Made by a program: the position numbers and the translations under genes. A DNA stretch of 64,000 nucleotides from an uncultured delta proteobacterium (lineage in GTDB: Bacteria; Desulfobacterota; WTBG01; CAIYCZ01; CAIRTM01), in assembly GCA_963804955.1 (NCBI GenBank), contig CAWDSQ010000030.1:292650-356649 (forward strand), in the 5' to 3' direction. Within the stretch, counting starts at the first letter, position 1; each line of letters opens with the position of its first letter. A model generated the notes under the pieces. The model searched no databases. It had not been told where the DNA came from and saw only the letters and a list, made by a program, of their open reading frames with translations. Below, piece by piece: positions 30,120 to 34,014 of the stretch.

Positions 30120-31964
30120 TTACCGCGGCAGCGTTATGCAAAACGAGGTTCCCCTGCCAGGCTGGCTTTCCACGGTGATAAATCCATTGTATCGCATGAG
30201 TATGTTTTTTACAATGGGCAGCCCCAGCCCCGTTCCTTCCGGAGAAAACTTTTTTGCTTCCACGGTGCGGTGAAATTCATCAAAAATTTGATCAATTTCT
30301 TCCGGCTCAATACCAATGCCGCTATCCTTGACGGTGATGACGATGCCGGCCTCGTCGCGCTGTATGTCAACGCTTACGCTTCCTCCCGCAGGGGTATAGC
30401 GAAGGGCATTTTCAAGGAGGTTTGAAAAAACACGCTGCATATCCCCTTCGGATTCCCTGAAGGGCAACTCCTCTGAAGGAATAGTGCAGGTGAGGCTGAT
30501 GTGTTTTTCCTTGAAAAGCTCTTCAAGCAGCTGCAGCGCTTCCCGTGCGATGCCGCCGATATCTACCGTAGAAAAGTTTTTTGCCTGTGCCGGCGCTTTG
30601 CCTACTGTCAGATATAAAATATCCTGAATCAGAACATGCAGATTTTTGAGCCTTCGTATGCATCGGTCTATGGTTTCCTTCTGCTTGTCGGTGAGCGGGC
30701 CCATATAGCCCTCTGAAAGAACAGCAAGAAGGCTTTGCACCGCATTGGCCGGCGACCTCAGGTCATGGCACATTCTATTGGAGAAAGTCAGAATAACTTT
30801 ATTTTTTGTTTCAAGCTCCAGGCGCGCCCGGGCATTTTCGATAATGATGGCTGATCCGCCCGCCAGAATTTTCAGGAAAGAAATTTCATCGCTGCTGTAT
30901 GTGCGCGGATGGTCTGAATACAGGCACAGATCGCCCATGAGCATACCCTTGTGCGCCAGCGGGATAGAAATGATAGACCGGATGCCTTCATCAAGCATGT
31001 ATTGACAATGGGTAATGCGGTGGTCCGTCTCCACATTCGCAACCATTATAATTTCATCAATGCTTTTGGGGAAAACGCCCATGCGCTTGGCAATAAAAGG
31101 GCCTGCAACAAACTGCTCTGAAAGCCCGTGGCTGGCAAACTCCTCGAGGTTTTCCTCCCCCGGTTTTATAAGCCGTATGAGAGCCCCCTTTGCTTTCAGT
31201 ATTGCCGTGCTTTCCTGCACGATGATTTCGAGGATATGCTTCATGTCATAGCTCGATATCATTGCCTGCGTGGCATCCATCAGCATTTCGCGCCTTTGGA
31301 GGTTGTTCTGTAGTTTATGGCTGAGGCAGCGTACTTCCGCCTCCCGCTGACGGAAACGGGCCATGATTGATGTGGCAAGAAATGTCGCGGCAAAAAGGAT
31401 AAAAGCATAAATAGGAAAAGCAAGCAGCGCCGTGTTCAGGCTGACTTTGCCGGGCTGCAGTGCCGTCCAGGACATGAATGCCGGAACGGGGAAATAGTAT
31501 TCAGCGCAGAAAATGCATGCCAGGCTGATCATGGAAAAAGCGGTATACAGATAGCACTGCCGGGGGGGGAACATAATGGCATTAATGATGATATGGAGTA
31601 TGAAAAAAAATACAAAGGGGCTGAACAGGCCGCCGGTTACATAGATGATGACAATCAGTGCAAGCCAGTCGAGCGCAACCTGCATGTGCATGAAAAAAGG
31701 GGTCAACCTCCCGGCGTCATGTATCTGGCGCAGAATCAGGAAGCACTCAAGGTTGTAAAAAAAGATGACAAAGCAGGCTGCATACAGAAACTTTGCGGGG
31801 ATAATCTGCGGAGCAACTATGGAGAGAAAAACCGAGAGCATGAAAAAACCGGCAATTGCCGCCCAGCGCAGCCGGATAAACCATGATGCTACGGTTTTTA
31901 TCTCTCCTGCCTGGAATTCTCCCGGCAGGAAATAATGTGTCAGCACAGCCCTGATATCCGCCAT
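30120..31964 (-). CDS. Membrane GAF-domain sensor histidine kinase
   Basis: Multiple TMs, GAF, HDLRSP, NLLENA, DSGIG and GTGLGL. Confidence 0.9.
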   Translation of the reverse strand: MADIRAVLTHYFLPGEFQAGEIKTVASWFIRLRWAAIAGFFMLSVFLSIVAPQIIPAKFLYAACFVIFFYNLECFLILRQIHDAGRLTPFFMHMQVALDWLALIVIIYVTGGLFSPFVFFFILHIIINAIMFPPRQCYLYTAFSMISLACIFCAEYYFPVPAFMSWTALQPGKVSLNTALLAFPIYAFILFAATFLATSIMARFRQREAEVRCLSHKLQNNLQRREMLMDATQAMISSYDMKHILEIIVQESTAILKAKGALIRLIKPGEENLEEFASHGLSEQFVAGPFIAKRMGVFPKSIDEIIMVANVETDHRITHCQYMLDEGIRSIISIPLAHKGMLMGDLCLYSDHPRTYSSDEISFLKILAGGSAIIIENARARLELETKNKVILTFSNRMCHDLRSPANAVQSLLAVLSEGYMGPLTDKQKETIDRCIRRLKNLHVLIQDILYLTVGKAPAQAKNFSTVDIGGIAREALQLLEELFKEKHISLTCTIPSEELPFRESEGDMQRVFSNLLENALRYTPAGGSVSVDIQRDEAGIVITVKDSGIGIEPEEIDQIFDEFHRTVEAKKFSPEGTGLGLPIVKNILMRYNGFITVESQPGRGTSFCITLPR

Positions 31965-32193
31965 AATGCTCCAAGAGCCTTGCGTTTTTTTTCAGTGCAT
32001 CCCGTGCATAAGAAACATTGTTTATGCGGTCGCAGCCGGCATTCTTCAAAGAATGTGCAGGTAAAACATTTTGAAAAATTCTATTTATTAATAGCATACC
32101 GGGCAGGCATACGCATTATGTTTTATGGGGAGTTTTTTTGTAAAGAAGGATTGATGGAGGCTGCGCTTTCCAGAAAAGATGTTTTCGAAATAT

Positions 32194-32462
32194 AATCCCG
32201 CGCTGAGAAGGCTGCCCTCTCAGCATTGGATGTGCTGGATCAACTCCCGGCAGCTGCTCTTCGGCTGAAATTGTATCCATGTTTGAAGGACAAACCATGA
32301 TCCGATCCGGAAGGCCGTTGACAGCTCGTTTTTCGTTTGAGCCGTAACAGGCATTGTCTACCCCCGCCGTCTTTGGCGGTGGGGGTAGAGGCAACCTGGC
32401 GCTTCGTTCCATTGTTTTCCCCTTTCAGGGGAATCCAAGCCACCGTCTATGCGGGCGGGTTG
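32194..32462. ncRNA. Candidate large structured RNA (~270 nt) / IS1111-like non-coding end
   Basis: At least six hairpins nested in two long-range pairings; no credible ORF; strand ambiguous. Confidence 0.5.
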
Positions 32463-32572
32463 TTGTCTTTTCACTTCTTGTTTAACTGAATCGCAATTTC
32501 TTCAGCGTATTTCTCCGGCAGTGCGTTCAGCAAAAGCCGGTCGCTTGAGCCCTGCGCAATCAGGGCAAGCCT

Positions 32573-33091
32573 TTATTTTTTCAGTTTGACGCAGCAGGTT
32601 TCCCCCGGCGTAACTTCGATCTCGACGCCGATTTTGGCGGCAAAGCCCTTCCAAAGCGGGATGCACCATTTGCTGTGCACGTCCTCCCAGGTAAGATTCA
32701 TGGTGCCCAGCGAGCTGGTGATTTCCAGCATCTCTTTGTAGGGGCACTGGAACCGCCGCTCGCAATCCAGGACCTCGATTTTTTCAAAAAGCTGGTAGTT
32801 GCAGGAGTTGCCTTCATACATGCCGTAGAGGGCTCTGTCCAGGCCCTTCTCGGGTATCCATCCGCCGATCATTTCAAGAATCGGCTCAAGGGTGGCCACC
32901 TCATGGTCAACATGCTCCTGCCAGAGGTTGTTTTTGACAGCGAAATCAAGGTTTGTAATGTGGGCTTTCACCAGCGCGTCATTGAACTTGTGGGGATAGG
33001 GAATGTTGTCGGTATAGGTCTGCAGCAACATCTGCATCGCCGGTTGCATATCGGCGGCTTCGGTGTCAAAGGGGTAGCGTATGCCTGGCAT
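32573..33091 (-). CDS. Hypothetical protein, possibly V4R/ATC-hydrolase-like fold
   Basis: 172 aa, GGAG RBS, C-terminal CPY..WC..C pattern. Confidence 0.7.
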   Translation of the reverse strand: MPGIRYPFDTEAADMQPAMQMLLQTYTDNIPYPHKFNDALVKAHITNLDFAVKNNLWQEHVDHEVATLEPILEMIGGWIPEKGLDRALYGMYEGNSCNYQLFEKIEVLDCERRFQCPYKEMLEITSSLGTMNLTWEDVHSKWCIPLWKGFAAKIGVEIEVTPGETCCVKLKK

Positions 33092-33133
33092 GGGGATCTC
33101 CTTATGTTATGTGAGCGGTTTAAAAAAGTATAA

Positions 33134-33856
33134 TTAAAAAAGGGCCTTGATGCTGAGCTCTGCCAGCTCCTTGCCCACGGCTTTCTCCATCATGTAGCCG
33201 CCGGGATCTTTCTCCCGGAAGTTTTGCCGGATGGCCTCCTTGCGCTCGTTCAAGCGGCTCATGTAGGCTTCGTCCCGGGGTTCGTCCTTTTCCCACAGCT
33301 GGTGATATATCGAAAGATACTCGACCGCCAATCCCAACAGATGCTCCTGGGACTGCCTGGTGCTGGGCGCAATATCGGCATTTATATAATAGGGCGATTT
33401 CATGGCGCGAAACCAACTGGGGTCGCGGGTGGATATCTCATGGTAGTGCTCGATGCCCCGGCTGTAGGCGCTGTCCAGCGGATCCAGATAGCGCTCCAGA
33501 TACGGGATGTCGCAGATGCAGTCGGCGGTTGGGCACAGGTCAAGGATGAAATAGCTGCCCTTGGCGCTTTCTGCCCAGAAGCAGATATATATGGGCAGGG
33601 CGTGGCGGTTGTCGGGCAGGATGTTGAGGGCATAGGACATGAGCCGGTCGCGGAAGGACGACTCGGTAATAACAATTTTTTCAAGCCCCGGAGCGGCGTA
33701 CAGATATTTATAGCTTGCAACAAGCCCGCCTCCCTGCAGGTTCCACAATGGGGTTATGTCCTGGCCGTCGTAGGTCTCCATGCGCCGGCCGCCGAACTTT
33801 TCGATTACCTTGTTCATTTCCCGGCCGAACGGCGGAAAGCTATAGTTTTCTGACAT
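33134..33856 (-). CDS. Ferredoxin-dependent bilin reductase / RCC-reductase-like protein
   Basis: LPIY..FILDLCP..YLERY..WFRAMKSPY..EYL..Y..LW..DPG pattern recalls the PcyA/PebA/RCCR fold; start MSENY after GGAGG. Confidence 0.6.
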   Translation of the reverse strand: MSENYSFPPFGREMNKVIEKFGGRRMETYDGQDITPLWNLQGGGLVASYKYLYAAPGLEKIVITESSFRDRLMSYALNILPDNRHALPIYICFWAESAKGSYFILDLCPTADCICDIPYLERYLDPLDSAYSRGIEHYHEISTRDPSWFRAMKSPYYINADIAPSTRQSQEHLLGLAVEYLSIYHQLWEKDEPRDEAYMSRLNERKEAIRQNFREKDPGGYMMEKAVGKELAELSIKALF

Positions 33857-34014
33857 GGCATTGCCTCCGGTATGTTTAAAGAGCAAAAGTGAAACTCGGC
33901 AGCTCTCATCCCTGCACAGAAACGGCAGGAATATAAATATTCATTTTATGTATAACTGTAAACCTAAATAAAGTCCAGTTTTTTTCAGGCAGCGATAGAT
34001 CATTCCATATCGTG

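Follow-up and report, generated by a model that had tools for sequence, protein, structure and literature searches.

A structured stretch upstream of a histidine kinase gene as a probable composite of a gene-less IS200/IS605-type miniature element, a hydrolase gene relic and an orphan spacer

In the insertion sequence IS608, the Y1 HUH transposase TnpA binds hairpins situated subterminally on the top strand and cleaves on the outer side of each, 5' at the left one and 3' at the right one; the element is excised in the form of a single-stranded circle and integrates 3' of a short target sequence, which is not duplicated. Its two ends carry similar subterminal hairpins and no terminal inverted repeats, cleavage falls 3' of a flanking tetranucleotide with the right cut 10 nt past the right hairpin, and no bases are gained or lost (PMC3201880). 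Gene-less IS200/IS605 derivatives of the PATE kind have been described in Geobacillus stearothermophilus (PMC10055086), and high-copy intergenic palindromic repeats of the REP, BIME and REPIN types are related to IS200/IS605 ends (PMC3333891, PMC8266576). Here, we analysed a 64,000-nucleotide stretch of DNA from an uncultured delta proteobacterium (the window), where an earlier note had proposed an about 270-nt highly structured element upstream of a histidine kinase gene. We show that positions 32357-32470 are a decayed copy of a ~120-nt gene-less derivative of the tnpA-only IS200 group, PATE or MITE-like, and the region as a whole is, with a probability that we put at roughly 0.88, a composite containing this IS200/IS605 miniature element, a hydrolase relic and a spacer, not a single structured RNA.

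The structured stretch lies in the 608-nt gap between the gene for a 614-aa histidine kinase with GAF, HisKA and HATPase_c domains (30120..31964, minus strand; ORF list and Pfam) and a 172-aa ORF (32573..33091, minus strand) to which no Pfam or NCBIfam family could be assigned, preceded in turn by a ferredoxin-dependent bilin reductase gene (33134-33886). From the kinase outward, the gap holds an upstream region conserved with the congener G004 and including a TTTACA-18-CATAAT site (31965..32156, minus strand; BLAST, promoter scan and the G004 sequence), a genome-specific 195-nt spacer with several local hairpins and no assigned strand (32157..32351; searches of the genome and its relatives, RNA fold), and an ATTG flank (32353..32356, plus strand) that stands directly 5' of the element and, judged by the family consensus TTATTG and by empty sites, presumably represents the target and left cleavage site. 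The gene-less IS200/IS605-type miniature element itself follows, 114 bases long and a subfamily B copy (32357..32470, plus strand; repeat family, ssDNA fold and right-end collinearity), and the gap closes with the relic 3' end of a PETase-like alpha/beta-hydrolase gene (32471..32572, minus strand; BLAST, BLASTP and Pfam), with its stop codon at 32471-32473 and its 33 start-less codons at 32474-32572 on the same strand. As an observation apart, the GAF-domain kinase sits near the ferredoxin-dependent bilin reductase and the conserved 172-aa ORF (32573-33886), an adjacency that is absent at the examined loci of the congeners G003 and G004, where each side has other neighbours; a bilin-sensing GAF kinase is a possibility that merits attention.

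Direct inspection recovered every local hairpin listed in the earlier note, including GCTGAGA/TCTCAGC (32205-32225), GTTGACAGCTC/GAGCCGTAAC (32319-32349), the long TCTACCCCC stem (32357-32389) and TTCCCC-TTTCA-GGGGAA (32417-32433). Folded as RNA, the 453 nt of 32120-32572 reach z -4.27 on the minus strand, a value equalled by 0/100 shuffles, and z -2.83 on the plus strand (1/100). The subregion 32351-32474 folded alone as ssDNA gives z -5.03 (0/200 shuffles as good), against weaker RNA folds of 32157-32351 with z -2.50 on the minus strand (4/200 shuffles) and z -0.49 on the plus strand (54/200), and the structure excess thus comes mostly from one sub-part. The proposal of one 270-nt structured unit is not borne out, as the hairpins are spread over a mobile repeat and a genome-specific spacer. 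The long-range pairs thought to frame such a unit, CCCGC/GCGGG and TTGGAT/ATCCAA, each link an arm in genome-specific DNA to an arm in the mobile repeat and find no conserved support: the GCGGG arm is part of the repeat's own right-end hairpin, and the ATCCAA arm coincides in part with its H3 stem and with the conserved CAAGCC linker. An Rfam search of the whole window returned no match at the gathering score, and permissive settings (E<=10) returned only chance-level snoRNA and RybB matches over the region, with E values of 2.4-4.9.

A BLAST search found window positions 32352-32469 repeated across the organism's own 4.26-Mb genome (G000), in which an nhmmer profile of the repeat has 46 matches at E<=0.01, 35 of them at E<1e-9. 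Most matches (38/46) fall outside any crude ORF of at least 90 aa, and the neighbours on the 3' side divide into 19 on the same strand, 25 on the opposite one and 2 undefined cases. Such a mixture of orientations toward neighbouring genes shows that no specific set of genes has the repeat as its leader. The consensus reads (TTATTG) TCTTCAG-AA-AACCATCGCC-TAT-GGCGATGGTT-CC-CTGAAGA-AGGCAAC in its 5' part and continues in its 3' part with a small hairpin, CGCCC-TTTCA-GGGCG and AAAT-CAAGCC-ACCCGC-TAT-GCGGGT-GG-TTGTTGACTT, a layout of left-end hairpin, two small hairpins, right-end hairpin and ..TTGACTT. The left hairpin, AACCATCGCC-TAT-GGCGATGGTT, and the right hairpin, AA(G)CCACCCGC-TAT-GCGGGTGGTT, are similar and subterminal; no terminal inverted repeats are present in the repeat, whose ends read TCTTCAG.. 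and ..TTGACTT, and its ssDNA folds give z -5.03 and -4.38. There are two subfamilies, and the window copy belongs to the rarer one, subfamily B; some copies carry internal deletions and retain both ends. In the window copy, the left-end hairpin (32357-32389) is followed by a decayed hairpin near 32397-32413, the TTCCCC-TTTCA-GGGGAA hairpin, the CAAGCC linker (32436-32441), a likewise decayed right-end hairpin (32440-32458) and the tail GTTGTTGTCTT (32459-32469).

Within the genome, RNAalifold on MAFFT alignments of the copies gave either no structure or a trivial one, and because these alignments are out of register between the subfamilies, pairing was counted on a hand-drawn six-helix structure. 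On this structure 80.1% is paired vs. 79.5% in column shuffles, a value reached by 61 of 500 shuffles, and 13 pairs show double changes vs. 8.0 in the shuffled sets (13/500). This is the picture expected of copies of a structured ancestor in nearly neutral decay, with weak selection on structure. We also observed that two of them (G000:C29:527-701 and G000:C30:165468-165642; L036 and L038) have flanks that are alike as well, which points to a segmental duplication or to two strain variants in the assembly and not to two insertions.

Mobility was assessed by comparing five G000 copies with the orthologous sites in four congeners. The copy on C8 is missing in all four, and in G003 its flanks abut at one base; the copy on C18 is missing in G001, and that on C32 in G001, G002 and G004, with no usable orthologous flanks for the copies C7 and C35b. 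For the three copies with filled and empty sites, the left boundary falls right after ..TT(A/T)TTG, the right one at ..GACTT(C), and no target duplication was seen at any of the three filled/empty junctions; the element ends are good to about 3 nt, as similar letters occur at both (..TCTT / ..ACTT). On sequence comparison, these filled and empty sites show that the repeat family was active after the divergence of these species. In the mechanism that we propose, the left hairpin (AACCATCGCC-TAT-GGCGATGGTT) and the right hairpin (AA(G)CCACCCGC-TAT-GCGGGTGGTT) would serve as two putative TnpA binding sites, ..TTATTG as the putative target together with the left cleavage site and ..TTGACTT(C) as the putative right end, and the gene-less element would be moved in trans by an IS200-type TnpA, as is presumed for PATEs. 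The element's top strand, which is the tnpA-sense strand in full-length relatives, is the plus strand of the window and lies opposite to the kinase. A further pair of loci in the same assembly, G000:C17:3400-4568 and G000:C18:3400-4720 (L158 and L153), has flanks that are 90-97% identical, and C17 is ~154 nt shorter than C18 between them and gives no match to the repeat profile; the difference may reflect a filled/empty polymorphism within the bin, or the loci may be paralogous.

The relationship to transposase-bearing elements is seen in the repeat's 3' half, which is collinear with the right ends of tnpA-carrying elements, the similarity of the left ends being limited to hairpin type. A pattern-independent Y1_Tnp search at E<=1e-15 through 17 genomes of the same bacterial family, G000 included, gave matches in 11 of them and a classical ~150-aa tnpA (over 80 bits) in 9, G000 not among the latter. 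Six of the eight inspected tnpA loci of the family, namely G004:C426 (same genus), two in G009 and one each in G007, G014 and G016, share with the repeat the right-end order of hairpin, CCGC-TTTGA-GCGG, CAAGCC, TCCGGC-TTT-GCCGGA and GG-N4-TGACT, and at their left ends ..TATTG or ..AATAG stands before a hairpin CCCCCGGC-TTT-GCCGGGGG; the remaining two have different ends. The collinearity comes from direct alignment, and nhmmer of the repeat profile against the tnpA loci gives weak matches (E 0.026-9.6). The same-genus locus G004:C426 carries an intact 143-aa TnpA that matches 768 plasmid records, the listed ones annotated as 'IS200/IS605 family transposase' and the best among these listed matches having 68.1% identity (E 8e-53), and an element on an Acidovorax plasmid with the same RefSeq annotation possesses the same left and right ends. 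The genus also harbours a second classical IS200 type (L181 and L184; G001:C243 and G003:C10), with end hairpins CCCCGCCGCTTGCGGCG.. unrelated to the 120-nt repeat. In full-length relatives (L126:1400-1435 and L130:1370-1390), the last tnpA codons (..DPFKG.. / ..DPFQ) are written by a CCCTTTCA-type sequence resembling the loop-stem of the right-end hairpins, and the right-end hairpin module may reach into, or derive from, the 3' end of tnpA.

When public genome contigs were scanned with a pattern taken from the repeat's 3' half, 53 loci were returned. Of these, 24 belong to MAGs with a Thermodesulfobacteriota, delta proteobacterium or similar label, 16 lie in a single Selenomonadales MAG as contig ends that carry the same sequence, 7 come from Clostridia-type MAGs, and 6 bear Nitrospinaceae, Planctomycetota, Bacteroidales, Bacteroidota, Mailhella and Heimdallarchaeota labels. 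The complete 120-nt form is found in 8 among the 23 loci listed (7 with Thermodesulfobacteriota/delta-type labels and 1 on a short Bacteroidota-labelled contig), and 4 of the 23 (L076, L082, L083 and L108) have neither the terminal hairpin nor the TGAC end and look truncated or like chance matches. The Selenomonadales MAG has 17 BLAST places, 15 of which span about 137-140 nt, and the recurrence of one sequence at 16 contig ends is the signature of a multi-copy insertion sequence; the body of this element is not in its bin, every copy sitting at a contig end. One such end reads as a left-end hairpin, CCACCTGC-TAA-GCAGGTGG, followed by the first 22 codons of a Y1 transposase, and scores 55.7 bits (E 1.1e-08; gathering score 56) against Rfam RF01405, STnc490, presumably an RNA derived from the left end of Salmonella IS200. 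STnc490 gave no match to the window copy or to the C8 copy of G000, and the Selenomonadales right end had no match when BLASTed against E. coli genomes.

At two of five distant loci, the shared motif is preceded by a Y1_Tnp ORF (Pfam 131.8 and 129.7 bits) whose end lies 66-111 nt away on the 5' side, and at the other three no Y1_Tnp ORF was found within 1.5 kb; PF07282 is next to none of the five, the two genomes with a match having it on other contigs. Across phyla, the two right-end hairpins show 94.0% of cells paired vs. 86.1% in shuffles and 18 double-change cells vs. 7.0 (0/500 shuffles reaching the observed value in either case), where the pairing columns are partly fixed by the pattern used for the scan; CCCTTTCAGGG and CAAGCCRCC are invariant in this set by construction, the scan pattern having been chosen by the analyst. 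The right-end module (hairpin, CCC-UUUCA-GGG hairpin, CAAGCC, GC hairpin, ..UGACU) is carried by TnpB-less IS200 elements under at least five bacterial phylum-level labels. That these three hairpins make up a transposon-encoded RNA, such as a regulator from the 3' UTR or a guide-like RNA with an unrecognised partner, beyond a TnpA binding site strikes us as a long shot; were it so, the ~46 gene-less copies would seed such RNAs genome-wide, one of them convergent to the bilin-reductase cluster near the kinase.

A related reading takes the 120-nt units themselves for small-RNA genes, specifying trans-acting or guide-like RNAs that stem from a transposon right end in the manner of omega-RNAs, with the window copy transcribed from the plus strand. 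In favour of it, the consensus has strong structure, the right-end module shows covariation across phyla, subfamily B carries a C(UUC)G-closed hairpin, the last hairpin and T-rich tail of the window copy were flagged as terminator-like on the plus strand, and PATE elements often encode omega-RNAs (PMC10055086). We nevertheless regard it as distinctly unlikely: the genome has no match to the TnpB-type family PF07282 (0 matches at 87% completeness), nothing promoter-like is conserved 5' of the copies apart from the TTATTG flank, the copies decay nearly neutrally, and Rfam gave no match, L131 included.

The transposase that would have moved the repeats is a separate matter. A classical IS200 tnpA, and with it a TnpA matching the repeat, was not found in G000 (PF01797; genome 87% complete), where only two RAYT-like Y1 genes were detected (scoring 79.9 and 60.1 bits with NF047646, whose cut-off is 80); a classical 143-aa TnpA is present in the congener G004. 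The better-scoring RAYT-like gene, outside the window, is intact and encodes 232 aa (L054:1383-2179 = G000:C30:145688-146484; 79.9 bits), and its borders are marked by a perfect 17-nt inverted repeat, along with a tandem 14-mer. Upstream of it, three tandem 161-nt units that are 63-100% identical (L054:481-943) produce a spurious repetitive ORF. The second RAYT-like gene (L055:1450-2428, G000:C20) is seemingly truncated at its N terminus, 113 aa in length, and the next ORF, of 206 aa, weakly matches the C-terminal region of DnaA. With two RAYT-like genes and no classical tnpA in the genome, the repeats could be of the REP/REPIN type and mobilised by a RAYT-like Y1 transposase of G000 rather than by a classical IS200 TnpA, but the inverted repeat around the intact gene differs from the 120-nt repeat and is unrelated to it, its core having only 5 occurrences in the genome, no copy of the 120-nt repeat flanks that gene, and the repeat's right end is collinear with classical tnpA elements, all of which makes such a mobiliser very unlikely.

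The DNA surrounding the miniature element bears the marks of rearrangement. On the kinase side, homology with G004 (L045) covers window positions 31148-32156 at 88.6% identity and stops at 32156, beyond which G004 has a different gene; on the other side, homology of the 172-aa ORF with G003 ends exactly at its stop codon, 32573, where a terminator and another gene follow in that congener. The intervening 416 nt (32157-32572) form a junction absent at the matching loci examined in these two congeners. Independent metagenome contigs bridge the junction boundaries (32092-32424, 32402-32550 and 32542-32692), although one run may be the source sample, and the junction is therefore not an assembly artefact. 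Within it, the 195-nt spacer (32157-32351) has no copy elsewhere in the genome and no match in 40 relatives, and it is an orphan spacer whose minus-strand, kinase-sense fold is somewhat above chance (z -2.50).

At the far end of the junction, the start-less 33-codon frame on the minus strand (32474-32572) is present with the sequence originally noted. The lack of terminal inverted repeats and a structured non-coding end recall the IS1111/IS110 family, and the frame had been read as a possible transposase tail next to an IS1111-type right end. BLASTP instead matches the peptide to a protein of 358 aa encoded on contig C36, over its 21 C-terminal residues (13/21 identical, E 2e-07), the DNA of the relic being 82% identical over 72 nt to C36:44899-44969. 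The C36 protein is weakly PETase-like (Pfam PF12740, 25.7 bits, below the cut-off of 28), and the hydrolase homology of the relic is clear for its last 21 codons. This match identifies the 33-codon stretch as a gene relic, the C terminus of a PETase-like hydrolase paralogue, and not as a transposase tail. An IS1111/IS110-type right end with such a tail is hence exceedingly improbable, the ends of the repeat matching IS200 elements and the adjacent 172-aa ORF containing no DEDD or Transposase_20 domain. What stands of the earlier suggestion is that a mobile piece is indeed there, with the IS200/IS605 family in place of IS1111/IS110, an extent of only 32357-32470 and an orientation on the plus strand.

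The consequences for the kinase follow from the position of its promoter-like site. The TTTACA..CATAAT site spotted from the letters was retrieved by a promoter scan at 32144-32115 on the minus strand, with a spacing of 18 nt, and no other promoter-like site precedes the start codon on the kinase strand. The site lies in DNA conserved with G004, and the element lies ~210 nt further upstream in the opposite orientation to the kinase, so that the element presumably does not supply the -35 hexamer, contrary to the earlier suggestion. The kinase most likely uses this predicted site in the conserved segment, and we infer from the arrangement of the sequence that the window copy would be a passive insertion with no designed role in kinase expression. 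A cis-acting 5' leader, riboswitch-like element or read-through attenuator of the kinase on the minus strand, made up of the 270-nt stretch or its 195-nt unique part, would accord with a location upstream of the kinase and with minus-strand folds that beat shuffles (z -4.27 for the whole and z -2.50 for the unique part). The stretch, however, lies upstream of the promoter-like site at 32144-32115 and hence outside the interval from promoter to start codon, the part of it with the most structure is the mobile repeat in antisense, and the DNA upstream of the G004 kinase orthologue diverges completely beyond 32156, with no conserved structure of the 270-nt unit there and no Rfam match, which renders such a leader highly improbable and leaves the 270-nt unit unsupported as a new ncRNA. 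The kinase should consequently not be annotated with a structured leader, the supposed new ncRNA being a transposon relic in rearranged DNA. More generally, the ~120-nt family, to which nhmmer finds ~46 matches here and BLAST many more in the four congeners, inflates 'structured intergenic element' calls in the lineage and can be masked with one model.

The repeat thus resembles IS200/IS605 elements, and IS608 in particular, in its subterminal hairpins, its lack of terminal inverted repeats and its duplication-free insertion 3' of a short sequence, and its right cut also lies ~10 nt 3' of the right hairpin. It differs in having no tnpA and a length of only ~120 nt, in a left cut ~9 nt from the inner hairpin vs. 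19 nt in IS608, and in a flank motif, TTATTG, that is longer than the TTAC of IS608. The guide/cleavage pairing of IS608 fits on paper at the left end (AGAA vs. TCTT) but not at the right, and the empty sites put the left cut before TCTT, against this paper fit. With PATEs it shares the nature of a minimal element retaining only left and right ends, whereas its hosts belong to another lineage, the public MAGs being labelled Thermodesulfobacteriota or 'delta proteobacterium', and the PF07282 search found no TnpB in G000, so that no omega-RNA role is evident. Like REP and REPIN sequences, it is a high-copy intergenic palindromic repeat in a genome with RAYT-like genes; unlike them, it has an asymmetric unit whose left and right ends are distinct and which includes two extra hairpins, and its copies do not cluster around the RAYT-like gene, which has different flanking repeats. 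The likeness of the Selenomonadales relative's left end to STnc490, at 55.7 bits, ties that relative to classical IS200, and the shared right-end architecture ties the repeat family to classical IS200 elements across phyla.
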